Shown: piece by piece, positions 41,189 to 64,000 of the stretch
Layout: each line of letters opens with the position of its first letter
Position numbering within the stretch: the first letter of the stretch is position 1
From: Acidobacteriota bacterium
Lineage (GTDB): Bacteria; Acidobacteriota; Thermoanaerobaculia; Thermoanaerobaculales; Sulfomarinibacteraceae
NCBI GenBank assembly: GCA_013152895.1
Contig: JAADFN010000181.1
Location: forward strand, 1,143 to 65,142
DNA: 64,000 nucleotides
Direction: 5' to 3'
The notes under the pieces: model-generated
The model's database searches: none
Told to the model about the DNA's origin: nothing
What the model saw: the letters and a program-made list of their open reading frames with translations, nothing else
Position numbers and translations under genes: made by a program

Positions 41189-42829
41189 TCAGGGAGCGAC
41201 GGCCAGGGTTCGTGCAGGAGCGGGGAGCCGGCCGATATGCACCTTCTGGGCCCTGGTGCGCCCGTCCGGCCAGCGGATGGTCAACGTGTGGTCGCCGGAG
41301 GGAACCTTGACCTTGATGAGCGGAAGCTTGCCAAGCTTCTTGCCGTCAAAGAACGCGGTAGCGCCTGCCGGAGCGCCGATGTCATAGACCACCGTAAGCT
41401 CTCCCACGTTCAGCAGGAGCGAGATGGTTTTCGTCCTCCACGTCACGTTCCTGTCAAACGATCTCGCGCCAAACCCGGGGAGGGACAGGGTGAACCGGTG
41501 CCGCCCCTGGGAGAGCCGGAGCTTTTTGATCTGAACCCGCCGTCTTCCGATCCGCTTTCCATCGATGCGAAGCATCGCTGGTGGGTCGATGAGCACGCGC
41601 ACCGAAACGGGTCCGCTCGGCGTGGGGGTGGCGGTTGGGGTCGGCGTCATGGTGGGCGTTGGTGTCGCGGATGGTGTCGGCGTCGGCGTCGGTGGAGGCG
41701 TCGGCGTTGGTGTCGGCGTCGGCGTCGGGATCCATGGAGCGCCCGCGGGTCCGAAGACGAAGGTTTGTGCGCGGGGAGAGAAGTACAGGAACCCCGCGGC
41801 GCCAGCGAGTAGCACGAGCATAACGATAAACAGGATCCAAGCGGGGCTCGAGCTTGAGACTTCGTTCATGGCCGGCTCGAGATGTTTGAGCGGGACGGAA
41901 TCGGGCGTTTCCATCCTGGCTGGAAGCGGCTCGGTCGAGGGGAGGTTGCTGGTCGTCCGTTTCTGTTTCATCGTGACGATGGCGTCACGGAGAATCGCGG
42001 GAGGATCGTGCTCCTCCGCGTCGAACGGCTCGACACGGCGAAGGGCCTCGGCAAGGTCGTTGGCCGAGGCAAAGCGTTCGTCCGGATCCTTGGCCAAACA
42101 CCTGAGGATGATGTCTTCCAGCGCCTGTGGACACCATGCAGCCCTGACCCGTGGCGGTTCGGGAACTTCATTGACGATCTTGTAGAGGATGTTGCTCAGG
42201 GAGTTTCCCTGGAAGGGAGAGACGCCCGTGATGAGCTCGTAGGCCACGGCTCCGACAGAGAACAGGTCCGAACGCCGGTCGAGGCCCGTCCCCTGAATCT
42301 GCTCAGGCGAAAGATATCCCGCGGTGCCAAGGGCGACACCGGTCTGCGTCAGGCGGCTGACGTCGCCGATCGACTTCGCAATCCCGAAATCCATGAGCTT
42401 GACGAGACCATCCTCCAGCACGTGGATGTTCGAGGGCTTGATGTCCCGGTGAATGACGCCGCGCGAGTGAGCGAACTCGAGGCCCTCGCAGACCTGGAGA
42501 AGCAGTGCGATGACGGCCAAGGGGTTCTCGTCGAACAGGTGCGCCCCCAGGAGCTCGTCGACGTCGTACCCGTTGAGGAGCTCCTGGACGAGGTACGGCA
42601 CCTCGTCCTCGATGCCGAAATCGAAAATGAGCGTGATGTTGGGATGGACGAGGTTCCCGACGAACTGGGCTTCCTTGAAGAACCTCTTCCGGATCTCGGG
42701 ATCGGGCGTCGCGCAGGTCTTGATGGCAACGTACCGCTTGATGAAGGGATCCCACGCCTTGTAGATGATGCCGAAGCCGCCCATGGCGATCTTGTCTCGG
42801 ATCTCGTACTTTCCGATGTGCTTCAGCAT
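41189..42829 (-). CDS. Ser/Thr protein kinase with a TM segment, a Pro-Thr linker and two PEGA-like extracytoplasmic domains
   Basis: Hanks motifs GGFGIIYKA, VAIK, HRDIKPSNI, DFGIA and GTAGYLSPE. TM segment WILFIVMLVLLAGAAGFLYF. PEGA-like motif VPSGDHTLTIRWPDG. Confidence 0.9.
   Translation of the reverse strand: MLKHIGKYEIRDKIAMGGFGIIYKAWDPFIKRYVAIKTCATPDPEIRKRFFKEAQFVGNLVHPNITLIFDFGIEDEVPYLVQELLNGYDVDELLGAHLFDENPLAVIALLLQVCEGLEFAHSRGVIHRDIKPSNIHVLEDGLVKLMDFGIAKSIGDVSRLTQTGVALGTAGYLSPEQIQGTGLDRRSDLFSVGAVAYELITGVSPFQGNSLSNILYKIVNEVPEPPRVRAAWCPQALEDIILRCLAKDPDERFASANDLAEALRRVEPFDAEEHDPPAILRDAIVTMKQKRTTSNLPSTEPLPARMETPDSVPLKHLEPAMNEVSSSSPAWILFIVMLVLLAGAAGFLYFSPRAQTFVFGPAGAPWIPTPTPTPTPTPPPTPTPTPSATPTPTMTPTPTATPTPSGPVSVRVLIDPPAMLRIDGKRIGRRRVQIKKLRLSQGRHRFTLSLPGFGARSFDRNVTWRTKTISLLLNVGELTVVYDIGAPAGATAFFDGKKLGKLPLIKVKVPSGDHTLTIRWPDGRTRAQKVHIGRLPAPARTLAVAP
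41620..41730 (-). repeat. Imperfect hexanucleotide (GGCGTC/GGTGTC)n tract encoding the (PT)n linker of the kinase
   Basis: Plus strand reads ...ggtgtcggcgtcggcgtcggtggaggcgtcggcgttggtgtcggcgtcggcgtcggg. It translates on the minus strand to PTPTPTPTPTPPPTPTPTPSATPTPTMTPTPTATPTP. Confidence 0.8.
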
Positions 42830-42945: not shown

Positions 42946-43650
42946 TCATGTCAGCCGGAGGCTGTCGAGCTCGATCGTCTGCTGCGTTTGCCGTACCTTG
43001 ATGATGGTACGGGGCGGATAGAACCCTCCGCGGAGGGTGGCGTTCGGGTAGGTGATCGAGCCGGGACCCAGCAGGACACCCGGGTTGAGGACCGTGTTAC
43101 AGCCCGTCTTGACGCCGTCGCCCAGGATGGCGCCGAACTTTCTCAAGCCGGTGTGGATCACCTCGCCACCGATGCGCATGGTGACCTCGCGGCCAACGTT
43201 CTTGACGTTCGAGAGGATGGTGCCGGCACCGAGATTGACATCCCGGCCGAGGATCGAGTCACCGACGTACGCCTGGTGGGGTGCCTTGGCGCCGGGGAAC
43301 AGGATGGCGCCCTTGACCTCGGTATGGGCGCCGACGAGCGATCCCTCTCCCAGGATCACGTGTTGACGGACGTATGCGCCGGTCCGGATCTGGGCGTTGG
43401 CCCCAATGATTGCGGGGCCGATGATCACGGCGCCGGGTTCGATGTGACACCCCTCGGCGATGTGGACCCGTGAGCCGAGGATGTGGACCCCTTCGGGCAG
43501 GTTGATCTGGATCGACCAGTCCTCCCACGCGTCGAGGTAGGTGGCAAGCTGGGCGCCGAGGGCGGACCAGGCAGGTTGACCCGCCGCGAAGATGCGGGCA
43601 TGCAGCCAGCCCTCGAGGGAGAAGAATGTGCCGGGCGAAAAATCCTGCAT
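42946..43650 (-). CDS. Left-handed beta-helix (hexapeptide-repeat) transferase, GlmU C-terminal-like
   Basis: The ATG at 43650 lies 6 nt after GGAGG and overlaps the upstream TGA. Repeated [LIV]G..[AV].I hexapeptides (IGPAIIGANAQIRTGAYV..., LGRDVNLGAGTILSN). Confidence 0.7.
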   Translation of the reverse strand: MQDFSPGTFFSLEGWLHARIFAAGQPAWSALGAQLATYLDAWEDWSIQINLPEGVHILGSRVHIAEGCHIEPGAVIIGPAIIGANAQIRTGAYVRQHVILGEGSLVGAHTEVKGAILFPGAKAPHQAYVGDSILGRDVNLGAGTILSNVKNVGREVTMRIGGEVIHTGLRKFGAILGDGVKTGCNTVLNPGVLLGPGSITYPNATLRGGFYPPRTIIKVRQTQQTIELDSLRLT

Positions 43651-44879
43651 CACGTACCTCCTCGCGTATCACCGGTCCGCCGGACGACCACGACCGTCTG
43701 GTCGTCCTCCAGCGGCCGGTTTTCACTGAACGATGATACGGCGTCGAAGATCGTGCCGATGATCTTCGACGCCGGCATGTCGCCCAGTCCCCCGACCAGC
43801 TTTTCGAGACGCGCCACGGAGAACTCCTCGTCGTTGCCCGGGTGGTGGGCCTCGGTGATTCCGTCGGTGTACAGAACGAAGAAGTCGCCCGGCGCCATGT
43901 GAAAGAGGTCAAAGCAGTACCGGCTATCCGGCATCGGGCCGAGAATCATGCCCCCCGTGCTGAGCTCCTCGATCGTTCCGGTCTTTCTGACGAGGAGACC
44001 GGGGGGATGCCCCGCGTTGCAGTACACGACGCCGCCGCCGACCTGCAGCTCTGCGAGGAAGAGCGACACGAACTTCGTCGCCAGCCTGCTCCGGTGGATG
44101 ATGCTGTTGAGCCGCTCAAGCGTCCTGGTGATCTTGAACTCCCGCGAGAGTCCCATTCTCAAGCCGGTGTAGACGTCTCTGACCTGCAGCGCGGCGGGCA
44201 ACCCGTGGCCCGTTGCATCGGCGATGACGACGTTGACGGTCATGTCGGTCAGGGTGATGAAATCGTAGAAATCTCCACCGACGACCTCGGCGGGAATTGT
44301 GCGGGCCGCCATGTCGAAACCTTCGTACTTGGGAATTCGGCTTGGAAGGATCGATTCTTGAATACGGCGGGCCTCTTCCAGGATCTCGTACATCCGTTCC
44401 TCGCGAAGCTTCTGGTTGATGGCAAGCCGCACGATATTGAGGATCGCGATGAGGTCTTCCTGGGCCGAGCTGGCCGGGGCGACGTCGAACGAGAGTGCAT
44501 ACCTCCTGTCCGCGACCATGATCGCGGCAAAATGATCCCGCGTCCCGATCTCGGATTCGAGCGAGGCGTCCAGGCCGGTGTCCGAAAGCGACATGCTGAC
44601 GCAGCCCTCGTCGTACAGACGCTCAAAAGGATGGTAATCGGTGGGGATCCGGAGCCCGAGCGGCGCCCTCGTCACCGTGCCAAACGTGCCGACGAGCTCG
44701 TAGTTCCCGAAATCATCCCGGGCGTAAATGCGTCCCCCCGTGATGCCAAGATCGTCGGAAAAGCTTTCGACGAGGAACTGGGCGGTCTGCCGGATCGTCT
44801 CGAGCGGCGTGGAGGCGTTGGCTATGGTCTCCAGAGCGCGTTCGATTCGGCGGAAAAGTGAAACCGGGCGGCGCGGCAT
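43650..44879 (-). CDS. GAF-domain PP2C-type (SpoIIE/RsbU-like) phosphatase
   Basis: C-terminal PPM motifs GGDFYDF, IADATGHG and LYTDGITEA. The N-terminal ~170 aa are GAF-like. Confidence 0.8.
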   Translation of the reverse strand: MPRRPVSLFRRIERALETIANASTPLETIRQTAQFLVESFSDDLGITGGRIYARDDFGNYELVGTFGTVTRAPLGLRIPTDYHPFERLYDEGCVSMSLSDTGLDASLESEIGTRDHFAAIMVADRRYALSFDVAPASSAQEDLIAILNIVRLAINQKLREERMYEILEEARRIQESILPSRIPKYEGFDMAARTIPAEVVGGDFYDFITLTDMTVNVVIADATGHGLPAALQVRDVYTGLRMGLSREFKITRTLERLNSIIHRSRLATKFVSLFLAELQVGGGVVYCNAGHPPGLLVRKTGTIEELSTGGMILGPMPDSRYCFDLFHMAPGDFFVLYTDGITEAHHPGNDEEFSVARLEKLVGGLGDMPASKIIGTIFDAVSSFSENRPLEDDQTVVVVRRTGDTRGGT

Positions 44880-45055
44880 GCCGGAATAATGTCACGGGTT
44901 TTGCGTTTGCACAAGACGGTGGCCGGGGAATATAGCCGATGGGTATCCCTCGCCACGACCGGAATCCAAAACAGCCCGGGAAAGCTCTGGGGGCGAGCCT
45001 CAACGAGCTTGTGTACAATTGTGCCCCGGCGAGCTCCTTCGCCTTGGAGGTCTTG

Positions 45056-45538
45056 GTGAAAGCCCTTATCGGAACGAGCGTATTGATCGTGATGGGCGCT
45101 GTGATGGCGCTGACAACGGCCGGATGCCACCGGGGCATCTCCGAAGAATCGGCGCCTCCCGTGCTTGCGTCCCACAGTGAGGGAAGCGTGGACTGGACGA
45201 GAAGCTGGGACGCTGCGGTCAAAAAGGCGCGGTCGAAGAATAGAACGATCCTGATCGACTTTTATGCCGATTGGTGCATCTGGTGCCGGCGGCTCGATGC
45301 GACCACCTACCGCGATCCCAAGGTCGTGGCATTCCTGACTGATCGCGTGGTAGCCACGAAGCTGAACGTCGACAAAAGAGAGGGCCGCAGCCTGTCCACC
45401 AAGTACCACGTTGACGGGCTCCCGACCATCCTGCTCCTGTCTGCGGACGGCCGCGAGCTCGGAAGGATCCCCGGTTACATGCCCGCCGGACAGTTCCTCG
45501 ACCGCCTAAACCAGATTCTCGGAACGGCCTCCAGGTAA
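45056..45538 (+). CDS. Thioredoxin-fold lipoprotein (DsbD-gamma / thioredoxin_7-like)
   Basis: The GTG at 45056 lies 6 nt after GGAGG. Lipobox ALTTAGC. Redox motif FYADWCIWCRRLD. Confidence 0.7.
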   Translation: MKALIGTSVLIVMGAVMALTTAGCHRGISEESAPPVLASHSEGSVDWTRSWDAAVKKARSKNRTILIDFYADWCIWCRRLDATTYRDPKVVAFLTDRVVATKLNVDKREGRSLSTKYHVDGLPTILLLSADGRELGRIPGYMPAGQFLDRLNQILGTASR

Positions 45539-45552
45539 GATCCCGGGGGATC
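45539..45552. other. Perfect 14-nt palindrome GATCCC-GG-GGGATC between the convergent stop codons
   Basis: Read directly at 45539..45552, between TAA (45536-45538) and the minus-strand TGA (45551-45553). It could act as a bidirectional hairpin. There is no U tract. Confidence 0.25.
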
Positions 45553-45970
45553 AACTGGAAGAGCGGGCGGGCTGGGTGAAGATCTCGGCGAAGCTGGTAT
45601 CTTCTGACAGCAGGGCGGGGCAGTCGCGAGCCGTGAGCCATGCGTGGTAGAGCCTGGTATTGCCGGCCTTCTTGATGCCGAGGTGGAGCTCCGGCTCGAG
45701 GCCGCAGCGGGACCAGAGGTCGAGGAGAATGAGTGAGCGCTTGAGGCATCGTCCCATGTGACGTGGGGGAAGGAACGAAGCGGTACGAGAGACGAGCGCA
45801 CCGGCGACAACGGGATCACGGAGAGGACGTGGGAGGGGAGAGACGCCGGAAAGCCACGCAGGAAGCTCGTCGAGGCCGTGCCGGCGGTAGCCGAAGGCGA
45901 CGCGAGCGGCGGCGAGCCCGACCCACGGGAGCAGGCAAAGCGCGCGAACCGCATTCCTTCTCATGCTCAT
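45551..45970 (-). CDS. Lasso-peptide B2-type transglutaminase-like cysteine protease (Transglut_core3-like)
   Basis: The ATG at 45970 is in an ATGA overlap with the upstream stop. MGRCLKRSLILLDLWSRCGLEPELHLGI...RLYHAWLTARD matches the Cys...His...Asp layout of lasso B2 proteins. 139 aa. Confidence 0.7.
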   Translation of the reverse strand: MSMRRNAVRALCLLPWVGLAAARVAFGYRRHGLDELPAWLSGVSPLPRPLRDPVVAGALVSRTASFLPPRHMGRCLKRSLILLDLWSRCGLEPELHLGIKKAGNTRLYHAWLTARDCPALLSEDTSFAEIFTQPARSSS

Positions 45971-47085
45971 GCCCGGCGTTTCACAACCTGTTCGAGGGCC
46001 TCGGCATACGCGCACGCTGCGCTTGAGGGACCCAGGATATCGCCATCTTCGACCAGCGCCTGCGCGTGGCACCGGCCGCAGTACGCAAGCCTCGAACATG
46101 TGGCGCAACCGCGAAGGTCCTGGCGCCGGATCTTGCGGAGCTTCGCAAGCCACGGCGACGTCTCCCAGATCTCCCGAAAGCTCATCTCGTTGATATTTCC
46201 CGATGAAGCAGGAAGGACATTGCACGCCAACACGTCTCCAGAAGGGGTAATGTTGGCGTACCGCACGCCCGCAGCGCAGAGTGGCCCGTCGCCGGCTGGT
46301 TGTTCGGCGTCATCGATCTCGCACCCGGTCTCCGGACCACCCCTGCCCAGCTGCACGGCATCTTCCGGGGCGAGGCGGAGCTTCAGCGGATCGGTGTTTC
46401 CATCCTTCCGGGCGAAGATTTTCGTATAGACCTTCGCCGGAACGTCGAGCTCCCCGGCAAGCTCGGGGACCGAGCTGCCACCATCGGGATTGAGAGTGGA
46501 GAGAGGAACGGTGAGCTCGACGGGGACGCCGCGCTCCCGTAACCGTGTGATGGCCGCGCGCACGGCCCTGAACGATCCCGGGATCGATGTGACGGCCTCG
46601 AAGACTGCTGGATCGCCGCTGTGGAAGCTGATCTCCGTCTGGAGGCCGAGCTCGGCGATACGATCGGCAGTCGGCTCATCGATCAGGGCGCCATTGGTGA
46701 GCAGCATGACCTGGAAGCCCAGGCTCCTCGCGTGCCTGGCGATCAGCGCCCAGTCTTTTCTCAGAAGCGGCTCGCCGCCCGTAAGCGCGAGGAAGAGCGT
46801 TCCCATGTCTGCGAGCTCATCCAGGAGGCGCATCAGACGTTCGGTTGAAACGCCGTTGGGAGCGTTGAAGTCCGGGATGTAGCAGTGACGGCAGCGGAAG
46901 TTGCAACGCCATGTCAGCTCGATGGAGATATCGAGCGGAATCAGCTCGCGAGCGGCCCGCTGGACCAGGCTGCGGAAGTGCGGCATGCCCTTGGTTTCGA
47001 TGCCCAGGTTTTCGGCCGTTCGCACGGGCACATGGCCCTGAGAGGCGCCCTCGTCGAAACGGTTCGTGCCGCGCGGGTCGCTCAT
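45967..47085 (-). CDS. Radical SAM/SPASM-domain peptide-modifying enzyme
   Basis: CNFRCRHC (CX3CX2C) and LTGGEPLL. SPASM-like C-terminus CAAGVRYANITPSGDVLAC...CATCSRLAYCGRC. The start at 47085 is in an ATGA overlap. An alternative start is 46986 (MPHFRSL). Confidence 0.85.
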   Translation of the reverse strand: MSDPRGTNRFDEGASQGHVPVRTAENLGIETKGMPHFRSLVQRAARELIPLDISIELTWRCNFRCRHCYIPDFNAPNGVSTERLMRLLDELADMGTLFLALTGGEPLLRKDWALIARHARSLGFQVMLLTNGALIDEPTADRIAELGLQTEISFHSGDPAVFEAVTSIPGSFRAVRAAITRLRERGVPVELTVPLSTLNPDGGSSVPELAGELDVPAKVYTKIFARKDGNTDPLKLRLAPEDAVQLGRGGPETGCEIDDAEQPAGDGPLCAAGVRYANITPSGDVLACNVLPASSGNINEMSFREIWETSPWLAKLRKIRRQDLRGCATCSRLAYCGRCHAQALVEDGDILGPSSAACAYAEALEQVVKRRA

Positions 47086-47819
47086 GCCGGGGCCGTGATC
47101 AGGTCCCATACCGACGGATCGGGGCGGAAGGCGAGGCGCCACACCGGGACCGAGGAGGCCAGCGCGCTCAACGTTTCAAAAGCGTCCGCAAATGCGGAGG
47201 CTTGCTCGACCGGCCAGTAGAAGTGACGCCGAAGCTCCCGGACGGCGCTGGGGGCGCCGAGCCGTGTCCGCACGTTTTCAGGACCGTGCTCCAACACAAA
47301 AACTCCGGCGAGCGGCGCATGGCCGGGACGTGCACGCCAGTAGGGGAGCGAGACGCCCTCGAAACCGCGAGTTGAAGCACGAACGAGGGCGAGCTCATCG
47401 CAGAGCGCGCGATCGCCACACAGGGCCGCAAGAGTGCTCTTGCCGCTCCCAGAGACGCCGCAACAAAGGTACCCGCGGTTTGCGTCCGTCAGGAGAGCCG
47501 CGTGGGCAACGATGGCCGGGGCGAGGAACTGTGGCAGCAGGTTTCTCAGGATACTGTCAACGTGATCGAGCGTGGCAGCCGTCCGCAGGGTGACGACACG
47601 GCCCGTCCCGTCCCACTCGACGGCCGGGCCGGCCTCTCCGGGTCGGTAAACGAGGATGGCGTCGGGCCCCGACGACGAGCTGCCGAATCCTTCGAACCGT
47701 CTTTTCAAGGCCCCGATTCGTGCCTCGTCGCCGGTACGAAACTCGATGGCAGCCCCGCCCATGTCAACTCGATGTGAGAACGTGCCCGGTAATTCGTCGG
47801 TGGGAAGGGGGGCGTTCAT
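47082..47819 (-). CDS. HPr-kinase-C-terminal-like P-loop protein (lasso-type precursor kinase candidate)
   Basis: Walker A CCGVSGSGKSTLAALCGDRALCDELALV resembles the HprK P-loop and following DD region. ATGA overlaps at both ends. Confidence 0.7.
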   Translation of the reverse strand: MNAPLPTDELPGTFSHRVDMGGAAIEFRTGDEARIGALKRRFEGFGSSSSGPDAILVYRPGEAGPAVEWDGTGRVVTLRTAATLDHVDSILRNLLPQFLAPAIVAHAALLTDANRGYLCCGVSGSGKSTLAALCGDRALCDELALVRASTRGFEGVSLPYWRARPGHAPLAGVFVLEHGPENVRTRLGAPSAVRELRRHFYWPVEQASAFADAFETLSALASSVPVWRLAFRPDPSVWDLITAPA

Positions 47820-48220
47820 GAATTCTGAGGATTTGTATTGCAGAGGTCACTGACGCCCGGTTGGAGAGCACAGGTTCCGGCAAACTGCCGAATCTCCTCC
47901 CGCCACTCGATCCGCGGTGCGGCCGCGCTCTCGGTGGTGTTCGGATCGGTTGGAAGACGACCCTCGAATTCGATCAGGCCTTCGCCGGCCAGATCCTTGA
48001 GAAAGGCGGCAAGATGTGATCGTGGAGTTTCGCCAACCCCGGCTTCGCTCAGCAGCAACCGCTCGAGATCTTCGAATTCGGCAGGCGTGGCGAGGGCGTT
48101 CCACACTCTGCCTGCAGTGACATTGAGCCCGTACATCTGCTTCCGTGACAAGTGGACAATGACCGTTTCTCCGCCGACATTCCTCCAGGCAAGGCCCTCC
48201 GCCCTCCGGATCCTTTCCAT
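47816..48220 (-). CDS. PqqD-family RiPP recognition element (lasso B1-like) with a 47-aa C-terminal tail
   Basis: The ATG at 48220 lies 6 nt after GGAGGGAGGA. LAWRNVGGETVIVHLSRKQMYGLNVTAGRVWNAL...LKDLAGEGLIE is PqqD-like. The tail is TDPNTTESAAAPRIEWREEIRQFAGTCALQPGVSDLCNTNPQNS. Confidence 0.7.
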   Translation of the reverse strand: MERIRRAEGLAWRNVGGETVIVHLSRKQMYGLNVTAGRVWNALATPAEFEDLERLLLSEAGVGETPRSHLAAFLKDLAGEGLIEFEGRLPTDPNTTESAAAPRIEWREEIRQFAGTCALQPGVSDLCNTNPQNS

Positions 48221-48286: not shown

Positions 48287-48841
48287 TTACTGCACGATAA
48301 AAAAGTACGTCGGGTCGGGACAGGGCTTTCGCATCCCATCCATCTGGATCTCAACTTTCCATCGCCCGTAGAGCGAGCTCGTCACGATACTCGATCCCGC
48401 GACTGGCAACCGGACATTTATTGAATCGTAGAGAACATTGTTGTATTTCAGCGCCTGTGGCGCCTTGATCCGGACGGGATACGGGTACCCGGCCAGCCGT
48501 CGGCTTCCCATCGGCGTGTGTCCTTTTTGCGGCGCCACGGGGACGTTGAGCGTCTGGTACAGGTGGCCGCGCGGCGTATAGACCTTGAGCGTCACCACGT
48601 GGTTCTTGTCGAGCTTGCCCTGGAACAACACGTGAAACACGAGATCCGTCGTCCGTGTGGCCGAGAAACGATTCCGGCTGAGCTGCGCCGGGGTATCCAC
48701 GGCGGTGACGATGACCTGGGGGCAGGTCGATGCCGGTGGCCCAACGTAGCCGTGAACCTGCGTCTGAGCGAAGAGCGGGACACCGGAAAGAACCATGACG
48801 CCTGTCACAACAAGCGCAGAGCGAAGTGAACGGTATTTCAT
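48287..48841 (-). CDS. Secreted protein of unknown function (184 aa)
   Basis: Signal peptide MKYRSLRSALVVTGVMVLSGVPLFAQ. It starts 9 nt downstream of the giant gene's stop. Beta-rich sequence, no recognised motif. Confidence 0.6.
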   Translation of the reverse strand: MKYRSLRSALVVTGVMVLSGVPLFAQTQVHGYVGPPASTCPQVIVTAVDTPAQLSRNRFSATRTTDLVFHVLFQGKLDKNHVVTLKVYTPRGHLYQTLNVPVAPQKGHTPMGSRRLAGYPYPVRIKAPQALKYNNVLYDSINVRLPVAGSSIVTSSLYGRWKVEIQMDGMRKPCPDPTYFFIVQ

Positions 48842-48850: not shown

Positions 48851-51800
48851 TTACTGAAGCGGTACCTGGACGCCATACACGGCGCCCGATTCAGAGCCGA
48901 CATAGAGTGTGCTGTTGACGTGGTCGTATGCGGGACTGCCGATCGTCGCCGAGCCATCTCCGAGCGTGACCGACGTGACGACGCTTCCATCCGCTGCGCT
49001 GAGCTGGTAGAGCTTGCCGTCGCTCGATCCGGCGTAGAGATAGGTGGGGTCGGCTCCGAAAACATGTAGAGGAATCGACGGTGAGGCGACACTGGTCTGT
49101 TTCCAGCCGAGGCTGGCGGAGCTTCCATCGTCCGTGATCGCCCAGATGTCGTTCGTCGTCGAGAAGTAGAGCCGACGCGGCGTCGACTGCGTGAACTGCG
49201 GAATGACATAGCCCTTGACCGGTCCATCGTCCGTGGCGTATGACCAGATCGTGTGCCCGTCAGCCGGATCGATCGCGTACACGATGCCGGAGTTGTTCCC
49301 GACATAGATCCGCCCGCCGTACAGGATCGGTGCGCCATCGATGTCACCGAGCGCCACCGACCAGACCTTCGTCAAGCTCGTTCCGTCGAAGCTCAGGCAC
49401 CACAAGGTGTCCTTCGATCCACCGGTCGAGCTTTCGCGGCTGGCGAAGTAGAGCCGGTTCGAGGCGTAGTCCACGCTGGCCGCCGACGAGATGATGCCAA
49501 TCCCGTTTGAACCACCGCCGTTATTGAAGCTGGTGATCGTGCTCCCGTCCGACGGATCGAGCATGTACATCGCGTTGTCCGCCGTTGCATCACGGGATCC
49601 GGCGAAGAGGACGCTCCAGCTTCCCCCAAAGTCGGTAAACATCCCGGCGGGGGACGCCAGCAGGATGTTTGAGAGCTGTGCGCTTTGCCAGAGGGTCACG
49701 CCGGTCTCGGCATTGACGGCGTAGACGTGGCCGTCCTCGGAACCGAGAAACACGACCATGGACGCGCCCGAGACGACGCTGGTCGGCACGACCGGCGGCC
49801 GGGCTTCTGCCGGGCCGTTCATCGCCATCGGCTTCCACGAATAGCTGCCGGTCCGCGGCCATGTGCCCCCGGAATCCCCGGGGTTCATCCCGTGCAGGAC
49901 ACGATCGTTCGAGACGGCCCACGTCGCGCCCGTCCCGATCGCCCCGGGATACACGCCGTTCGGCGCCAGCGCAGTGGCCTCCGAGTTGTAGACCCACTTG
50001 ACCTTGCCCGACGTGTCGAACGGTCTGGCTGTGACCGTCTTGGCGGACGAGAAGTTACCCGCGCCATCGTCCACGAAGGCGGTGTAATAGTACGTCGTTC
50101 CGTTGGTCAGCCCCGTGTCGGTGTAGCTGTCGTACGCTCCGAGGCTTCCGGCCTGGCTGACGATCGGTGTACACGTTGACTCGTCGGGGTAGGCCGACGT
50201 GTCGCGGCAGATTTTCGTCGATCCGTACACTCCGGTGGACGGGTTGACCCACTCGAGCGTGACCTGGCCGGAAGTCGCCCGGGCCGTGAAGCTCTGGAGC
50301 GGATCCGACGTCCCGGAGCTGCAGGTCGAGCCGGACAAGTTGGTTACCGAGACATCATCGATCAGCCATCCCACATAGGTGTTGTAATAGGAGTCCACTG
50401 AATCAAAGGTAAACCGAATGATCATATCGCTGGGAGATGATGGTGGAGATAGCGCGATGTCTCCCGACGCGGTCCACGCTGCGCCTGACGCATCGGCACA
50501 ATCCTTGTACCAGACCTGGTTCCAGGTCGTTCCTCCATCGTACGAGACGTCTACCTTCGTGATGTCATAGCCTCCGCTCGAATAACTTTCGACTTGCCGC
50601 CAGTATTCGAAGCTCAAGAGTGACGACGATGTGACGCCGGAGATTGTCGGCGACGTCAACGTGCCGGTGGTTGTTGCCCCGGTGTCGTAGTCGCAGCTCG
50701 AGTCCTGGCCGTAGTACCACGCATGCGTTCCCGACGTGGCCGGGGGACTGACACAACCGGTGCTGTTGACCTCGTGCCACAGCCCTCCGCTCGCGGTCCA
50801 TCCCGTCGATCCCGATTCGAAGTCTTCGGTCCAGGTGGTGTTGCCGGCCACTCCGCTCTTTTCGATCGTGTTGGCATCCTCGAAGCCGCCGTTGCAGGCA
50901 CCGCCATGCCCGACCGACGAGTCTTCGGCCCGAACGATGTAGTAGTACGTCGTGCCTCCGGCGACCGTCGTGTCTTCGTAATAGAGGTTCGTCACGCAGC
51001 TCGCCATGAGGGTGGACGAGTCAGGCGTGAAGCCGGACGTCGTGGATCGGTAGATGTTGTAGACGATCGAGGTACCGGTGGCGCAGTTCGACGTCGCGGC
51101 GTTCCACTCGAGCTTGAGGCCGCAGGTGCTGCCGGCCATTACGGTCACCGATTGGAGACCGTCGAACGTCGGTGGCGCACCCACGTTGTCGACGGCGGAT
51201 GCCGTGGTTCCGCCGTCGGTGGCGCACCCGTACCCGTTCGTCGCCTGGATACCGTAACTGTACGTTGTGCCGTTCGTGCCGGTCGTGTCGACGTACGAGG
51301 TCGTCGTTTCGGAAACATCGCTGGCGATCGCGCTGCCGCCGCGCAGGACGGAAAAGCTCCGGGTTCCAGATCCCCCGTCGTTCCAGGTCGCGGGCGTGTT
51401 CCATGTCAGGACGACGCCTGTGTCGTCGCATGCGTCACGGTCGGTTGCGGTCTGGATCCCGCCGAACGCGAACGAGTGGTCCGCGTCGGCCCCCGAGGTT
51501 CCCGCCGACCATGCGCTCGTGTTGCTGCAATTGTCGTTGACCGCCTGGACCGTGTAGGTGTGCGTTGCCGCATCGCCAGGCGTGTCCGTGTAGCTCGTTG
51601 CCGTGACCCCGGTCGCCACCGTGGTGCCATCGCGAGCCACGTTGTACGAGGTGGCGTTCGCCGCGGCGCTCCACGATACGCCGATACCGCTTGCAGCGCA
51701 CACCGAGATATCGCTCACGCTCGGTGCTGATGGCGTTGCCGGGAAGGCATCGGCGTCCGAAGCGGATGTCGCCGCCGACCACGCACCGGTGCAGGTCGAG

Positions 51801-54004
51801 TTGGTGCCGCGCACCTGGTAGGTATGGGAGGCCGAGTCGCCCGGGTTGTACGAGTACGGACTGCTCACGTTGGTGATCGTTGTCGTTCCGTCGATCAGCA
51901 GGTCGTACGCCGTCGCGCCGGTGACGGAGGTCCAACTGACCGTGACGCCTGTCTGTGCGCACTGGTCATCATCGCTGACGGACGGCGCCGCCGGCGTTGC
52001 GGGGGAGTCGTCTGCATCCGTGAAGCTCTGGGCGGCGCTGTCGGTGTAGCAGGTGTCGTCGAGCGCGCGAATAACGTAGCTATGAGAATTGGTATCGCCG
52101 GGGTTGTACAGGTCTCCCGAGGCGTAGTTGCTGACCGCAAGTGCGCCGTCAACGTAAAGATCGTGGCTCGTTGCGCCTGAGCCTGCCGTGTAGTTGACGT
52201 GTACGCCGTCCTGGGCGCACGCGCTGTTGTCTGTAATCGAGGTGATGACCGGCTGCCCCGGATCGGTGCATACGGCGCAGTCGGAGTACTTGAACGATGC
52301 GATGCGGGTGTGCCACTGGAAGTCACCGGTCGCGGTGTAATACTCCTGGGTGTACCAGAACGTGCAGTCATCGGAAGGGTCAATGCTCATCGAGGAGTAA
52401 TCACCCCATCGGCTGTGACCATCCTGCGAGCCGGTACCGTCCACAATCGACGATTCTGCCTGGGTCATCTCGTTCAGCGTATCGCCAGCGAGCCTTCCCG
52501 TGTAGTAAATCGAGGGGTACACGGATGAGCTGGACGCGCTGTATCCAAGCGCCATGTTCCCCATGTGATCCATCGCGATCGATCCCATCCAACGTGAAGT
52601 ACCGTCAGGTTCGTACGTTCCTGACTGGTAGATCGTGGGTGTTCCACCGGGATCCCTGATCTCATACCACCTGATGGCACTGTCGGCAGACGAGCCCGTG
52701 ACCGAGTGATTGACCACGAGCGACTCGTGATCGCCCGGGAAGTTCCGGTAGGCGAGGCGGTACATCATCCGGTCTGCCAGCGAATCCAGCTGCTGGGTGA
52801 CGCCCGGTTGTGCGATGCACGTGCCACCACTGCACGCTTCACTGAAGCTTGCGACGGTGAGTGTGGTCGGCCCCGTGAAGGTAGAATTGCTCGAATTGCT
52901 CCAGTCGATATGAAGCTTCCAGAAGAGCAGGCTCTGGCCGTCGCCTCCTTTTGCGACGACGTATTCCGGCGACCCCGAAGGCGGCTCGTTCGGTCCCTCC
53001 ATGTCGGCCGGCAGCAGGCCACCGTAGCTCGAATAGGGCCCAAAGCACTGGGTCACGGCGTTGGCATCGCCGTTGATCATCGCGGTACGGTCGTACGCGC
53101 AGATTTCGCCTCCGTCCCAGGTTTGGCCGTTGGCAAACATGTTGTACGTAATGTAGTACCCGTCCGGCCAGACTCCCATCTTGGGATAGTCGTTGAAGTC
53201 GGAGAAAGTATACTCGTAGAGGTACCAGGATCCGGTGGGATCGGACGTCTGGGAAACAGCGATACATTGATAATAGTTTGTCTTGTCATCGGTTTGCGAG
53301 ACCGCGAACTGCGTCATGATCCACCGGTTCGCCATTTGATCGTACTCGACGATCGGGTCGCCATCGTTGTCGTCGGCGCACTCGTTACCCGAGCCGAGGC
53401 TGCTCCAGAGGGTGTTCCCAGCGGCAGGTCCGTATGCGACGCTGGCATCGGACTTGTTGAAAATCGTGAACATCGTATTCGTCCACTGAACGTAGTAGTT
53501 CAGGCCGACGTCACCCTCAGTGTCTGGTGGTTCACTTGCGATCGTATAGCCGGACAGGCCATCCCCGCCACCTTCGAAGTTCAAGATCGGCGCCGGCATC
53601 AGCCTGGTACCCGGGGTCGTCTGGTCCGTGTAATGCAACTTGGAAGGTGGTGCTCCACCACCTTTGACCGCGTTCGGTGGCATGTTGATGCCCTCGGGAA
53701 GCTCGTGTTCCGGCATGAGGCGGATTTTCTTCGCAACAGGGAGCGGCTTGATGGTGCGCAGCGGGGGAGTCACGGCAAACGCGACGGGCCTGTAGACCGT
53801 GGCACCCTGCTTTTCCGGGGGGCTTGAGCCGTGCCACTGTGCATTGACGACCGGGACCGCGCCGAGCAGCAAAAGCCCTGGAAGGACGGCTAGCCCGAGC
53901 CATCGGCGAACCTGCGAACCCATCGCATGAGCGTCCGGATTCGTCTGAGGTCCCCCAGGCGCATGATTATCCCTCGACCCCCGTGTATTCTTGGATTCCA
54001 ACAT
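48851..54004 (-). CDS. Giant secreted multidomain protein (1717 aa): N-terminal unknown domain, tandem Fn3/Ig-like modules, a jelly-roll (MAM-like) domain and a C-terminal PQQ/BamB-like beta-propeller
   Basis: The ATG at 54004 follows GGAGGGG. Signal region SQVRRWLGLAVLPGLLLLGAVPVVNAQ. Propeller blades VYAVNAETGVTLWQS, VYAIDPADGHTIWSY and LYQLSAADGSVVTS. Jelly-roll region WTEDFESGSTGWTASGGLWH...GWLIDDVSV. Confidence 0.85.
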   Translation of the reverse strand: MLESKNTRGSRDNHAPGGPQTNPDAHAMGSQVRRWLGLAVLPGLLLLGAVPVVNAQWHGSSPPEKQGATVYRPVAFAVTPPLRTIKPLPVAKKIRLMPEHELPEGINMPPNAVKGGGAPPSKLHYTDQTTPGTRLMPAPILNFEGGGDGLSGYTIASEPPDTEGDVGLNYYVQWTNTMFTIFNKSDASVAYGPAAGNTLWSSLGSGNECADDNDGDPIVEYDQMANRWIMTQFAVSQTDDKTNYYQCIAVSQTSDPTGSWYLYEYTFSDFNDYPKMGVWPDGYYITYNMFANGQTWDGGEICAYDRTAMINGDANAVTQCFGPYSSYGGLLPADMEGPNEPPSGSPEYVVAKGGDGQSLLFWKLHIDWSNSSNSTFTGPTTLTVASFSEACSGGTCIAQPGVTQQLDSLADRMMYRLAYRNFPGDHESLVVNHSVTGSSADSAIRWYEIRDPGGTPTIYQSGTYEPDGTSRWMGSIAMDHMGNMALGYSASSSSVYPSIYYTGRLAGDTLNEMTQAESSIVDGTGSQDGHSRWGDYSSMSIDPSDDCTFWYTQEYYTATGDFQWHTRIASFKYSDCAVCTDPGQPVITSITDNSACAQDGVHVNYTAGSGATSHDLYVDGALAVSNYASGDLYNPGDTNSHSYVIRALDDTCYTDSAAQSFTDADDSPATPAAPSVSDDDQCAQTGVTVSWTSVTGATAYDLLIDGTTTITNVSSPYSYNPGDSASHTYQVRGTNSTCTGAWSAATSASDADAFPATPSAPSVSDISVCAASGIGVSWSAAANATSYNVARDGTTVATGVTATSYTDTPGDAATHTYTVQAVNDNCSNTSAWSAGTSGADADHSFAFGGIQTATDRDACDDTGVVLTWNTPATWNDGGSGTRSFSVLRGGSAIASDVSETTTSYVDTTGTNGTTYSYGIQATNGYGCATDGGTTASAVDNVGAPPTFDGLQSVTVMAGSTCGLKLEWNAATSNCATGTSIVYNIYRSTTSGFTPDSSTLMASCVTNLYYEDTTVAGGTTYYYIVRAEDSSVGHGGACNGGFEDANTIEKSGVAGNTTWTEDFESGSTGWTASGGLWHEVNSTGCVSPPATSGTHAWYYGQDSSCDYDTGATTTGTLTSPTISGVTSSSLLSFEYWRQVESYSSGGYDITKVDVSYDGGTTWNQVWYKDCADASGAAWTASGDIALSPPSSPSDMIIRFTFDSVDSYYNTYVGWLIDDVSVTNLSGSTCSSGTSDPLQSFTARATSGQVTLEWVNPSTGVYGSTKICRDTSAYPDESTCTPIVSQAGSLGAYDSYTDTGLTNGTTYYYTAFVDDGAGNFSSAKTVTARPFDTSGKVKWVYNSEATALAPNGVYPGAIGTGATWAVSNDRVLHGMNPGDSGGTWPRTGSYSWKPMAMNGPAEARPPVVPTSVVSGASMVVFLGSEDGHVYAVNAETGVTLWQSAQLSNILLASPAGMFTDFGGSWSVLFAGSRDATADNAMYMLDPSDGSTITSFNNGGGSNGIGIISSAASVDYASNRLYFASRESSTGGSKDTLWCLSFDGTSLTKVWSVALGDIDGAPILYGGRIYVGNNSGIVYAIDPADGHTIWSYATDDGPVKGYVIPQFTQSTPRRLYFSTTNDIWAITDDGSSASLGWKQTSVASPSIPLHVFGADPTYLYAGSSDGKLYQLSAADGSVVTSVTLGDGSATIGSPAYDHVNSTLYVGSESGAVYGVQVPLQ
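50851..52261 (-). repeat. Protein-level tandem repeat: about five Fn3/Ig-like modules inside the giant CDS
   Basis: Recurring pattern C(A)..G(V).V.W....GATsYdL..DG......S.YsY.PGD...HTY.V.a.N..C (for example CAQTGVTVSWTSVTGATAYDLLIDG..., CAASGIGVSWSAAANATSYNVARDG...). It spans residues ~590-1060 counted from the track ORF. Confidence 0.7.
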
Positions 54005-54048
54005 GTTCCCCTCCAGTCCCAAAACCAAGGCAAGTCTCTCTTATCATC

Positions 54049-54077: not shown

Positions 54078-54336
54078 GTCACTCCTTGGTCTGAGTGAGA
54101 AGTTTACAGAACTTTCACAAAGGAACAGCGCGAAGAGCGCATAGAAGTAACTGCGGACACGTAACTTAGGGATTACCCGCTTTGTAGCTGAGAACCGGTC
54201 GCAAGGCAGCGATATATTGGAATTTCGCAACTTCCCGGCTGGGAGGACGGATCGAGGTTGCTCGGCTACTTTGCGACGGGATTTCTGCAGCTGGCACCAT
54301 GAGCCCGGCTGCGCTATGGTCTTCTCGGAGGTGGCT

Positions 54337-55275
54337 ATGGAAAAACGGCCGCGGGCTCTCGTAACGGGTGGAGCAGGATTTCTTGGATCGCATCTGTGCG
54401 AGCGGTTGCTCGACGAGGGATGCTCGGTGGTTTGTATGGACAACCTCATCACCGGATCGCTCACCAACATCGAACATCTCTTCGGACGAGAAGGGTTCGT
54501 CTTCGTCAAACATGACGTGACAAACTTCATCCATGTGCCGGGACGGGTCGATTACATCCTGCACTTCGCGTCGCCAGCGTCGCCGATCGACTACCTCAAG
54601 CTCCCGATCCAGACGCTCAAGGTCGGGTCGCTCGGGACACACAAGGCGCTTGGGCTGGCGAAATCGAAGGGTTCGCGCTTCCTGCTCGCGTCGACGTCGG
54701 AGGTCTACGGCGATCCGCTCGTGCATCCCCAGCCGGAGAGCTACTGGGGCAACGTTCATCCGGTGGGACCGCGCGGCGTTTACGACGAGGCCAAGCGATT
54801 CGCCGAGGCGTTGACGATGGCGTACCATCGGCATCACGGGGTCGAGACGCGCATCGTTCGAATCTTCAATACCTACGGGCCGCGGATGCGGGCAGGGGAT
54901 GGGCGGGTGGTGCCGACGTTCATCAACCAGGCCCTGGCTGGAGAGCCGCTGACGGTCTTTGGGGATGGATCTCAGACGCGGTCTTTCTGCTACGTGGACG
55001 ATCTCGTCGAGGGCCTCTGGCGGCTTCTCAACTCGGATCATGCTGAGCCCGTCAATATCGGGAATCCCAAGGAGATGACCGTTCTCCAGTTTGCGAAGGA
55101 GATCGTCCGGCTGACCGGGTCGAAATCGAAGATCGTGTTCGAGCCGTTGCCGGAGGATGATCCAAAGGTTCGCCAACCAGATATCACTCTGGCTCGCAAG
55201 CTTCTCGAGTGGGAGCCAGAAGTTCCGCTGGATCGGGGGCTGGCCCGCACGATCGAGTACTTCAAGAACGCGTGA
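54337..55275 (+). CDS. UDP-glucuronate decarboxylase (UDP-xylose synthase), SDR family
   Basis: The ATG at 54337 follows [29 protein letters not shown] and YDEAKR catalytic motif. Confidence 0.9.
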
Positions 55276-55336
55276 GTCCCGGGCGCGATGGATTCGAAAA
55301 CGATGATGGTACATCACATCGGACTCCTCCGGTGCC

Positions 55337-55365
55337 TTGACGCGTGAGATACCCAAGACTAGATT
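55337..55365 (+). promoter_or_regulatory. Candidate sigma70-type promoter
   Basis: TTGACG (55337-55342), a 17-nt spacer, then TAGATT (55360-55365), ~80 nt upstream of the ATG at 55445. Confidence 0.3.
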
Positions 55366-55444
55366 GAGAGAGGATACGGACACGGTGAAAGCGAATCTAT
55401 CGTTCATGTCTGGTTTCATGTCTTGTGAGCCCTGGAGGTGTTTC

Positions 55445-56395
55445 ATGGTGTCTCGAGTTCTTGTTGGGGCGCTCGTGGTTGCCGTTCTTGCCGCGGCGGT
55501 CCCGGCGTCGGCCCAGGTTGTCTCTCCCGTTCATTTTCTTCCGGTGGTTGTCAAGGCGAAGGGCGTTGCAGGCACGCTTTGGCGCAGCGATGTCTCCATC
55601 ACGAACTTGACGAACAAGGCAGTCACGGTGACCGCTGCATACCTCCCCGAAAAACAGACGAACTTTCCACCGTTGCAGCACACGCACGAGTTCACGTTGC
55701 AGTCGAGACAGACGATTCTCGTGGAGGATGTTGTCGGGAAGTGGTTCCCCGGCTTTGGCGACAATACGAAGGGTGCCATGCTGGTGTACACGGAGAATCC
55801 TTCCTTCAGCAAGGGGATGTTCCTGAGCAAGGACGCGCTCATGGCCCAGGGGAAGGGTGAGGCGGCGCCGTCTCTGGCGGTCACAAGCCGGGCGTACAAC
55901 GCGGCGAATCCGGATGCGACGTATGGCCAGACCGTTGCGTCGAATCCGTACGGCTATTTTTTCGGAATCGCGGCCGGTGAGATGACCGGTATGCGGCAAG
56001 ACACGAGGTTCCGCACGAACATCGGGGTGGTCAACCTCTCGGGACTGACGGCGGCCGTGCTGGTCACGGTGTACGACGAGACGGGACGCCTCCTCGCTCA
56101 CAAGACTGAGCATGTTGAGGGGTTCTCCCTCCGACAGTGGAACCTCAAGCGTGAGTTCGGGGTCGACGGTCTGCACGACGGCTTGGTTGAGGTGAAGATC
56201 GATCCGTCGGTCGCAAATCAGGACCCCTGTGGCAACACGGCGGGCGGCCTGTCTCCGATGCTGGTCGCGTATTATTCGAAAAACGACTTCGCCACGGGAG
56301 ATGCCGAGTTCGGCGTCGCCCAGGTGGACTGGAGGCAGTACGCGGTGGAGTGCCACGAAAGCCCGATGGAGCAGTGTCCGGCCGTCGGTGAGTGA
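55445..56395 (+). CDS. Secreted protein of unknown function
   Basis: The ATG at 55445 follows GGAGGTG. Signal peptide MVSRVLVGALVVAVLAAAVPASA. N-terminal HFLPVVVKAKGVAGTLWRSDVSITN pattern. Confidence 0.6.
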   Translation: MVSRVLVGALVVAVLAAAVPASAQVVSPVHFLPVVVKAKGVAGTLWRSDVSITNLTNKAVTVTAAYLPEKQTNFPPLQHTHEFTLQSRQTILVEDVVGKWFPGFGDNTKGAMLVYTENPSFSKGMFLSKDALMAQGKGEAAPSLAVTSRAYNAANPDATYGQTVASNPYGYFFGIAAGEMTGMRQDTRFRTNIGVVNLSGLTAAVLVTVYDETGRLLAHKTEHVEGFSLRQWNLKREFGVDGLHDGLVEVKIDPSVANQDPCGNTAGGLSPMLVAYYSKNDFATGDAEFGVAQVDWRQYAVECHESPMEQCPAVGE

Positions 56396-59945: not shown

Positions 59946-59949
59946 TCCA

Positions 59950-60879: not shown

Positions 60880-60905
60880 TGTATCCTCCGAGCGTTCCGA
60901 TTGGC

Positions 60906-61268
60906 TCAGGCGAGCTCCCGCTCGATGACCCGAGCCGCTCTCCGGAGGTAATAGCCTGCCTTGGCGGGCAGGCCGTTCCGGCGGAGCACGAGCACAACAT
61001 AGTAACCGTCGGAAAGCAGCTCAGTCAATGACGTCAGGTGAGCCGCAGAGATCGTATAAGAACGCACAAAGCCGGCTTCGGTCGCCTCAAACGCCTGATT
61101 GATCCTTCTTTTGAAGATGCTGTGATATGCCCCTTCGACCTTGAGCTCATATGGATCGCCCTCCCTCGTGACGCACTCGATCGTTTCGCCCTCGTGATCA
61201 AGAAAAATGGCACCAACAGCTTCGGGAACATCGACGAGGAGGTTTGTTAAAATATAATTGAACGGCAT
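60906..61268 (-). CDS. Roadblock/LC7 (MglB-like) domain protein
   Basis: A 120-aa product starting MPFNYILTNLLVDVPEAVGAIFLDHEGETI. The alpha-beta-alpha pattern is typical of Roadblock/LC7. TGATG overlap with the upstream TPR reading frame. Confidence 0.65.
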   Translation of the reverse strand: MPFNYILTNLLVDVPEAVGAIFLDHEGETIECVTREGDPYELKVEGAYHSIFKRRINQAFEATEAGFVRSYTISAAHLTSLTELLSDGYYVVLVLRRNGLPAKAGYYLRRAARVIERELA

Positions 61269-63802: not shown

Positions 63803-64000
63803 GAGCACACCGTTCAATATACCACGAGCCGTTTCAGGGCATCTCGGGTACAGGACGGTGCGTGGGATATCATCGGGGATAGCCCGCGTGTCTTACACAC
63901 GTTCGTCGCGGGATCGAGGAGGCGTTTGTCAGTGTGGCGTTTCGACCAAGGTGGGGCCGAGGCGTGCTTGTGGCACGGCGCAGGCGGCACCACGGCGAGA

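Follow-up and report, generated by a model that had tools for sequence, protein, structure and literature searches.

Putative RiPP module in Acidobacteriota with a radical SAM enzyme in place of the lasso cyclase and a precursor that appears fused to the PqqD protein

We focused on four adjacent minus-strand genes in a 64,000-nucleotide stretch of DNA (referred to as the window here) from an Acidobacteriota bacterium (assembly GCA_013152895.1, contig JAADFN010000181.1), which encode a PqqD-family protein, an HprK-like P-loop protein, a radical S-adenosylmethionine (SAM) enzyme with a SPASM domain, and a transglutaminase-like cysteine protease of the B2 type. They probably form a module for a ribosomally made peptide with posttranslational modifications (RiPP) from the kinase-bearing (paeninodin-like) branch of the lasso peptide pathways, with the radical SAM/SPASM enzyme replacing the cyclase and the substrate fused to the PqqD (B1) protein. 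The module appears to comprise four genes in 2.7 kb, substrate included. An earlier note on this DNA had described a minus-strand operon coupled by ATGA overlaps. The four open reading frames (ORFs) were confirmed at 45551-48220, as were the start/stop overlaps at all three junctions (47816-47819, 47082-47085, and 45967-45970) and the peptide strings that it quoted. It had found no precursor, for which a candidate now emerges at the C terminus of the PqqD protein.

The PqqD protein carries a conserved, precursor-like tail

The PqqD proteins of this clade are about 130 to 140 amino acids long, compared with about 90 for a discrete RiPP recognition element (RRE). In the window protein, residues 1-86 make up the RRE fold, residues 87-101 a variable linker, and residues 102-134 a conserved tail of about 33 residues, PRIEWREEIRQFAG-TCALQPGVSDLCNTNPQNS, with the pattern P-x-I-x-W-x-E-E ... 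C-x9-C ... Ser. The linker varies in both sequence and length in the alignments. A word-indexed protein search with the PqqD protein gave 6 relatives; we used instead an exhaustive HMMER search of 1.84 billion representatives at 50% identity, which yielded 142 proteins at E < 1e-10, of which ∼138 are tailed. These tails fall into two types, with 124 (type 1) and 14 (type 2) representatives. The type-1 tails keep a fixed register: the Trp and the first Cys are 11 residues apart in 94 of the 124, C-x9-C is found in 106, and the second Cys lies 6 to 7 residues from the C terminus in 113. The final residue is Ser in 82 and Thr in 10 (92 of 124 together). Pairwise differences among the tails at codon positions 1, 2, and 3 number 974, 835, and 1,541, respectively, and this excess at the third position indicates that selection acts on the protein sequence. 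The type-2 tails (L037-L041, P0277, P0279, and P0302, among others) follow the pattern WREEVARVTHQTSPPQxIxNPQCxx, with their only Cys lying within N-x-x-C. We considered this as an N-x-x-C β-thioether motif, given the NPQC of the type-2 tails, but Asn occupies the matching position three residues before the second Cys in only about 4 of 14 type-1 tails, so it was kept as a lead only.

We retrieved 80 loci from distinct GTDB species via an alignment of radical SAM homologs and queried the ORFs in all six frames with profiles that had been iterated starting from the proteins of the window; presence counts are restricted to loci with enough flanking sequence. In eight loci, the tail homolog is a free-standing small ORF: three from Rokubacteria (L055, L058, and L066; for example, MDTEQAGRSEQAGEPAQRAYEPPRITWEEDFQPYAFSTCGKMAGQGFICNLHRNS), one from Kofleriaceae (L059), and four from other Acidobacteriota (L045-47 and L050, reading ...KKTWQVPAIEWEEDYEPVVFSASCTSQPFNCGAGARD). 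The HprK-like gene directly follows this ORF in the loci from Rokubacteria and Acidobacteriota, the radical SAM gene does so in the Kofleriaceae locus, and a separate PqqD gene is found elsewhere in those free-standing loci with enough upstream sequence. All eight peptides contain [Y/W]xxPx[I/V] (WQVPAI, YEPPRI, and YEAPAI), which is what discrete RREs in lasso and linear polyphosphorylated peptide (LPP) pathways bind (PMC13381572). The fused tails retain the Pro and the Ile or Val, with an aromatic residue at P-3 in only ∼30 of 133, and in the window tail just P-x-I survives (AAAPRI). Such a decay of the aromatic position would be expected if covalent tethering relaxes the need for tight binding. 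Judging from these sequences, the precursor appears to be fused to the C terminus of the PqqD protein in this clade and free-standing in distant relatives.

An AlphaFold2 model of the window PqqD protein places an RRE fold at residues 1-86, followed by a low-confidence linker and a disordered core (residues 113-134). Residues 104-109 (IEWREE) are modeled as a β-strand next to the RRE, and the block 101-110 has a mean predicted local distance difference test (pLDDT) score of 86. The model thus weakly suggests that the tail could be presented in cis.

The four genes recur as a unit without a lasso cyclase

The order PqqD, HprK-like, radical SAM, and B2 on one strand is kept in the closest ∼45 loci, all of them from Acidobacteriota (Thermoanaerobaculia, Holophagae, and others) and with radical SAM enzymes that are 47% identical or more. 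Of 33 fused type-1 loci, 32 have an adjacent HprK-like gene, while the presence of B2 depends on the form of the precursor: it was found in 29 of 32 fused type-1, 1 of 4 type-2, and 0 of 8 free-standing loci. B2 thus tracks the precursor fusion (29/32 versus 0/8), which suggests that it frees the core from the RRE-leader part. Since this gene order recurs in dozens of genomes, the four-gene arrangement is far beyond chance, and the recurrence of the set without a cyclase, which the earlier note had put forward as a check, is borne out. A different arrangement was seen in seven loci with distant radical SAM relatives (31 to 38% identity) from Planctomycetota, Elusimicrobia, Desulfobacterales, and Verrucomicrobiota (L044, L053, L057, L071, L078, L079, and L081), where the order is HprK-like, a short tailless PqqD (∼95 amino acids), and radical SAM; motif scans found no precursor in these loci.

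The same loci were scanned for the asparagine synthetase-like cyclase of lasso pathways. Neither SGG[LIVMAC]DS nor the relaxed PP-loop motif S[GA]GxD[ST] occurs in any frame of the 64-kb window, in agreement with the earlier note, and both are missing from the 40 loci with the fused architecture. The sole clear matches sit in distant loci and resemble NAD synthetase or GMP synthase. Across the ∼80 related loci, no cyclase signature was found within 10 kb, nor was there an Asn_synthase Pfam match within 10 kb in the four annotated neighborhoods (L001, L002, L003, and L085). Given that the cyclase defines lasso clusters, the module, with no such signature in the window or within 10 kb in the related loci, is not one. 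In the core, moreover, neither Asp nor Glu is conserved at a set place among ring positions 7-9, whose numbering hinges on the putative cleavage site. Therefore, the label "lasso-type" used earlier holds for the ancestry of the genes but not for the product.

Family assignment of the four proteins

The families named earlier for the PqqD protein, the radical SAM/SPASM enzyme, and the protease were recovered above threshold, while the HprK assignment drew weaker matches. The PqqD protein scores 39.2 bits with Pfam PF05402 (gathering score, 23.4) and 34.7 with the Bacillota-specific NCBIfam model lasso_PqqD_Bac (cut-off, 80). The protease scores 40 bits versus 26 with Pfam Transglut_core3 and is borderline for NCBIfam lasso_biosyn_B2 (32.3 bits; cut-off, 33). 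Its Cys75 and His109 are invariant among 29 homologs, and its profile found no match among solved structures by sequence. None of the four small proteins matched a PHROGs family.

The radical SAM enzyme matches Pfam Radical_SAM (83.7 bits) and SPASM (36.3 bits), both above threshold. It contains the full SPASM cysteine set and has no N-terminal RRE of its own, and Cys 61, 65, 68, 270, 288, 327, 330, 336, and 339 are invariant in the homolog alignment. The solved structures nearest to it are those of SkfB (2e-24), a thioether synthase, and PqqE (5e-23). It reached no NCBIfam family cut-off, the best scores being AhbD (128.8 bits), NirJ2 (127.2), GeoRSP (118.4), WgkB (105), PqqE (98), and MftC (97). 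By its sequence features, including the full auxiliary-cluster cysteines, we predict it to be a maturase of the sactipeptide/ranthipeptide type. Its homologs are ∼343 amino acids long and the ATGA start adds ∼30 to 33 N-terminal residues, suggesting that the true start may be the ATG at 46986 (MPHFRSL) rather than the ATGA overlap. That start would leave a 96-nucleotide (nt) spacer behind the kinase-like gene.

The HprK-like protein of the window has no Pfam match; its NCBIfam scores are 25.8 bits for HprK_rel_A (E = 5e-6), far under the cut-off of 200, and 17.2 bits for ScmC (E = 2.6e-3; cut-off, 125). Single sequences of the family match only generic P-loop families, PEPCK_ATP (5 members), and, in one case, Hpr_kinase_C. 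The family profile, however, matches the HPr kinase structures 1ko7 over 72 residues (8e-5) and 1jb1 over 60 residues (2e-4), suggesting homology beyond the P-loop alone. In the alignment of 49 members, H106, G121, S123, G124, G126, K127, T129, D141, and E142 are invariant or nearly so. With this P-loop, the upstream His, the downstream acidic pair, and the profile homology, the protein has the features expected of the HPr kinase/phosphorylase superfamily, to which it can be putatively assigned.

A conserved neighborhood that includes two secreted proteins

Upstream of the module, on the same strand, lie the genes of a secreted protein of 184 amino acids (p184) and of a giant secreted protein (Table 1). 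The gap between the giant gene and p184 is 9 nt, and the one between p184 and PqqD is 66 nt. A strong ribosome-binding site, GGAGGGAGGA, precedes the PqqD gene. No convincing terminator was found between the giant, p184, and PqqD genes, although the promoter/terminator scan was uninformative. Since the other junctions overlap and the p184-PqqD gap is just 66 nt, the operon of the window has no room for a further ORF.

p184 is found in 27 of 33 fused type-1, 5 of 5 type-2, and 6 of 8 free-standing loci. It has two nearly invariant cysteines (C40 and C174) and no match in Pfam or NCBIfam, and its AlphaFold2 model (pLDDT, 81.5) is an all-β, immunoglobulin (Ig)-like β-sandwich. Foldseek returned generic Ig-like β-sandwich matches (PDE6D/UNC119 and CARDB; template modeling [TM] score, 0.3 to 0.5), which we did not use to assign a function. 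The giant protein matches Pfam PQQ_2 (55 bits) and also RGI_lyase, and its matches in the PDB are β-propeller designs and BamB; the N-terminal ∼560 residues have no Pfam or NCBIfam match. Its homologs adjoin p184 in more than 30 loci, including some where the pair is divergent from or downstream of the module, and both proteins are co-conserved in about 80% of the fused loci. The earlier delimitation of the unit as 45551-48220 is thus correct for the four genes, but the conserved neighborhood in this clade exceeds them, taking in p184 and the giant protein. The type-2 loci mostly do without B2, but p184 and the giant protein are retained there, together with the kinase-like and radical SAM genes.

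Table 1. Positions in the window of the module, its functional motifs, and the two co-conserved secreted proteins
Feature	Position	Strand	Size and basis
PqqD-family RRE protein with C-terminal precursor tail (putative)	47819..48220	-	134 aa; Pfam PqqD, AlphaFold2 fold
Putative fused precursor peptide, residues 102-134	47819..47917	-	Tail conserved in register; free-standing homologs
Leader-like motif P102-E109 of the PqqD tail	47894-47917	-	
Putative core T116-S134 with Cys117, Cys127, and C-terminal Ser	47819-47875	-	
HprK/ScmC-like P-loop protein, putative peptide Ser/Thr kinase	47082..47819	-	245 aa; HprK_rel_A, ScmC, and 1ko7/1jb1 profile matches
Walker A GVSGSGKST of the HprK-like protein	47433-47459	-	
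Radical SAM/SPASM enzyme	45967..47085	-	372 aa from the ATGA start; Pfam Radical_SAM and SPASM
CxxxCxxC of the radical SAM enzyme	46882-46905	-	
SPASM Cys cluster C327-C339 of the radical SAM enzyme	46069-46107	-	
B2-type transglutaminase-like cysteine protease	45551..45970	-	139 aa; Transglut_core3, NCBIfam lasso B2
Putative catalytic Cys75 of B2	45746-45748	-	
Putative catalytic His109 of B2	45644-45646	-	
p184, secreted 184-aa protein, signal peptide and Ig-like β-sandwich	48287..48841	-	Co-conserved with the module
Giant secreted protein	48851..54028	-	Maximal ORF, 1725 aa; FN3-like repeats, C-terminal BamB/PQQ_2-type β-propeller
aa, amino acids.

Proposed pathway

From the observed gene content, synteny, and tail conservation, we infer the following pathway, of which every chemical step, the cleavage site, and the link of the product to the secreted proteins should be read as conditional. 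The RRE domain (residues 1-86) would bind its own leader-like segment P-R-I-E-W-R-E-E (residues 102-109) in cis, leaving a Cys-bearing core of ∼19 residues exposed. The radical SAM/SPASM enzyme would then introduce one or two intramolecular cross-links into the C-x9-C core, most likely Cys-derived thioethers; given the conserved Cys-bearing core and the kinship with SkfB, this is the most economical guess, but only a guess. The HprK-like protein may phosphorylate a Ser or Thr, with the conserved Ser at the C terminus as the best candidate. In paeninodin-type lasso and LPP clusters, a Ser of the precursor is phosphorylated by the HprK-like kinases (PMC13381572), making the terminal Ser or Thr of the type-1 tails a plausible acceptor, yet the type-2 and some free-standing forms end without a Ser, so that the phosphorylation site is uncertain. 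Finally, B2 would cut the RRE-leader off the core, at a site that is probably close to F-A-G | x-C; the register with lasso leaders suggests cleavage at this point, giving a core of ∼19 residues in the window. Each RRE molecule would be used once.

Several points weigh against this pathway. Leader cleavage, phosphorylation, and radical cross-linking, also suggested in the earlier note, are plausible but predicted, and the homology to HprK is weak, so that kinase activity is assumed. In NCBIfam, the radical SAM enzyme scores best with two heme enzymes, AhbD and NirJ2, albeit far below their cut-offs. The docking of the tail in cis is weak evidence because the AlphaFold2 run used an alignment of 6 sequences and only 1 of 5 models was confident. 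The C-terminal Ser is missing from the type-2 tails and from four free-standing precursors whose loci retain the kinase-like gene. The genome may also encode a cyclase at a distance of more than 10 kb. Lastly, the cluster contains no exporter by which a cytoplasmic peptide could meet its secreted, co-conserved neighbors.

A further-reaching version of the proposal, which we advance tentatively, is that the module represents a new RiPP class whose recognition protein is also its precursor, as a single-use RRE-leader-core protein. Its C-x9-C core would be cross-linked, phosphorylated, and excised by B2, and the product, whether a ligand or a cofactor derived from a peptide, might act with or inside the β-propeller giant and p184.

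Alternative readings

The close association with the secreted proteins could also mean that the module is a maturation system for them and does not make a free natural product. The cross-linked tail peptide would then serve the giant protein or p184 as a cofactor, subunit, or ligand, or the radical SAM enzyme would modify these proteins directly. QhpD/QhpC of quinohemoprotein amine dehydrogenase, pyrroloquinoline quinone (PQQ), and mycofactocin are precedents for peptide-derived cofactors or cross-linked subunits. The giant protein and p184 adjoin the module in 26 to 27 of 33 fused type-1 loci, 5 of 5 type-2 loci, and most free-standing loci, and this linkage persists despite differences in gene order or strand. 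The short gaps with no convincing terminator, and a β-propeller of the PQQ_2/BamB type, point in the same direction. On the other hand, the module also occurs without the giant protein and p184, in L001, L003, and L085, where the neighbors encode NTP_transf_5, PMT_2, or a sulfotransferase; the tail lacks a signal peptide, and the cluster an exporter gene; and p184 and the giant protein contain no leader-like motif, with weak fold matches for p184. We regard this explanation as unlikely. Less likely still is that the four proteins act on a separate small precursor, the PqqD tail being a docking, autoinhibitory, or metal-binding extension. RiPP precursors usually have genes of their own, and scans with regular expressions or hidden Markov models could miss short divergent ORFs. 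However, the free-standing tail homologs occupy the position expected of a precursor and carry the canonical RRE-binding leader motif, the window operon has no space for another ORF, and no other conserved small ORF was found.

Two further readings strike us as highly improbable, to a similar degree. In one, the module is part of an ordinary lasso pathway whose cyclase and precursor are encoded elsewhere in the genome, with the radical SAM enzyme in a tailoring role. Paeninodin-type lasso clusters are characterized by B1, B2, and a kinase of the HprK-like type (PMC13381572), and our view of this genome is limited to 64 kb. Yet the missing PP-loop signatures within 10 kb in ∼80 loci, the missing Asn_synthase matches in the four annotated neighborhoods, the position of the radical SAM gene, which is always between the kinase and B2 genes, and the core without a conserved Asp or Glu at ring positions 7-9 all argue against it. 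In the other, the pathway is not directed at a peptide, the radical SAM enzyme being a cofactor- or heme-type enzyme (AhbD/NirJ-like) among functionally unrelated neighbors. This would fit its two top NCBIfam matches, but their scores are far under cut-offs of 500, and the GeoRSP, WgkB, PqqE, and MftC maturases score similarly. Moreover, in dozens of genomes, tight translational coupling links the gene to those of an RRE and of a leader-type protease, and the closest solved structures, SkfB and PqqE, are those of peptide modifiers.

Comparison with known systems

The RiPP module that we favor over these alternatives shares several parts with paeninodin-type lasso clusters (A, B1, B2, C, HprK-like kinase, NTP transferase, and sulfotransferase), namely, a discrete PqqD-type RRE, a Transglut_core3 Cys/His protease, and an HprK-like protein. 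Its free-standing relatives bear [Y/W]xxPx[I/V], and related loci bear NTP_transf_5 and sulfotransferase genes. The C-terminal Ser of the tail also recalls that of paeninodin, which is the phospho-acceptor. The module differs in that it has no asparagine synthetase-like cyclase, always includes a radical SAM/SPASM enzyme, has its putative precursor fused to B1, and has a C-x9-C core in which no acidic acceptor for a ring is conserved.

Among published systems, its nearest relative is the LPP family (Popov et al., Nat Commun 2026, PMC13381572), which is cyclase-less, derived from lasso pathways, and equipped with an RRE and an HprK-like kinase. LPP clusters encode an SpI-type signal peptidase, an MsbA-like exporter, and separate precursors of 35 to 200 amino acids, and they have been reported only from Bacillota (PMC13381572). 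Like them, our module is a cyclase-less offshoot of lasso pathways with a discrete RRE, a kinase of the HprK-like type (and an NTP transferase in relatives), and the same leader motif logic, and it is often embedded in cell envelope or polysaccharide loci. In contrast to LPP clusters, it has a radical SAM enzyme and B2, while no SpI peptidase, NTP_transf_5, or ATP-binding cassette exporter was found in the window operon and its flanks (42.9 to 55.4 kb). As it has a radical SAM enzyme but neither the peptidase nor the exporter, the module does not qualify as an LPP cluster. Since LPPs, with SpI peptidase rather than B2, have been published, the loss of the cyclase is less unprecedented than assumed earlier, and the view that the gene set belongs to no known class stands only insofar as we found no description of this set.

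PqqD homologs and PqqE-like radical SAM/SPASM enzymes also co-occur in the uncharacterized SynChlorMet (Scm) and GeoRSP systems, known from NCBIfam/TIGRFAM definitions, and Scm includes the HprK-like ScmC as well. However, the scores for ScmC (17.2 versus 125) and ScmE (89 versus 400) and for the GeoRSP radical SAM equivalog (118.4 bits versus 400) are far from their cut-offs, Scm has two radical SAM proteins (ScmE and ScmF) rather than one, and B2 and the precursor fusion set the module apart from both. PQQ (PqqA/D/E) and mycofactocin (MftA/B/C/E) pathways likewise combine a PqqD-type RRE and a SPASM radical SAM enzyme, which acts near the C terminus of a small peptide, with subsequent proteolysis. 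They are distinguished by the scores for PqqE (98 bits; cut-off, 381) and MftC (97; cut-off, 265), by a different core, and by the kinase and B2 of the module. With sactipeptide and ranthipeptide maturases and QhpD, the module has in common a radical SAM/SPASM enzyme and a Cys-containing peptide as the (here putative) substrate. The cross-linked peptide QhpC becomes part of a periplasmic enzyme that contains a β-propeller subunit. Those systems have no kinase, B2-type protease, or RRE-precursor fusion, and thioethers are only a prediction for the module. A core naturally fused to the C terminus of a pathway protein is known from borosins (OphMA type), where the partner is a catalytic methyltransferase that is consumed once per product; the fused partner in the module is a noncatalytic recognition domain, and the chemistry and organisms are unrelated.

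No description of the gene set or of a natural RRE-precursor fusion was found in the literature, although subscription journals were mostly outside our reach and a prior description is possible. If our proposal is correct, this would, to our knowledge, be the first time that a precursor is seen joined to its own RRE in nature. It would also mean that a RiPP family occurs widely among uncultured Acidobacteriota, with more distantly related forms in Rokubacteria and one Kofleriaceae genome, and that the recognition, protease, and kinase parts of lasso pathways have been reused with radical SAM chemistry replacing the cyclase. The fusion would then be a built-in experiment on how much leader affinity is needed, with the aromatic anchor decaying upon tethering. 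For genome mining that is blind to precursors, a simple rule follows, namely, to check "long" PqqD proteins for C-terminal extensions. A nonantibiotic role is hinted at by the tight linkage to the secreted β-propeller giant.

Accessory and flanking genes

NTP_transf_5 (PF14907) genes occur in 27 related loci, the window not being among them. A PMT_2 glycosyltransferase gene is found in L003 and L085, the latter with a Sulfotransfer_3 sulfotransferase gene in addition. NTP_transf_5, sulfotransferase, and PMT_2 make up an accessory set that paeninodin and LPP clusters also have. Genes of these three families lie at 7457-8674 in L001, 10815-12158 in L055, 7198-8256 in L046, 5375-8627 in L085, and 6425-8266 in L003. 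The module of L001 sits amid polysaccharide genes (Wzy_C and a chain length kinase).

In the window, a plus-strand gene at 44939-45538 converges on B2, with 12 nt between the stop codons, and encodes a thioredoxin-like protein that resembles the C-terminal domain of DsbD and has an N-terminal hydrophobic segment. We rejected it as a member of the module because it has no homolog in any related locus. The ORFs at 54166-55446, 55397-56356, and 57196-58194 have no Pfam match, and the region upstream at 56414-63817 (minus strand) contains housekeeping genes for lipoate-protein ligase, riboflavin synthase, RibD, FtsY, a TPR protein, and a HAMP-HD-GYP-type protein. Downstream on the minus strand are genes for a Ser/Thr protein kinase that combines a PEGA domain with a long (PT)n linker (41189-42829), for a hexapeptide-repeat GlmU-like acetyltransferase (42946-43653), and, overlapping the latter, for a SpoIIE/PP2C phosphatase (43650-44879), SpoIIE homologs of which recur downstream of the module in L011, L012, L034, and L002.

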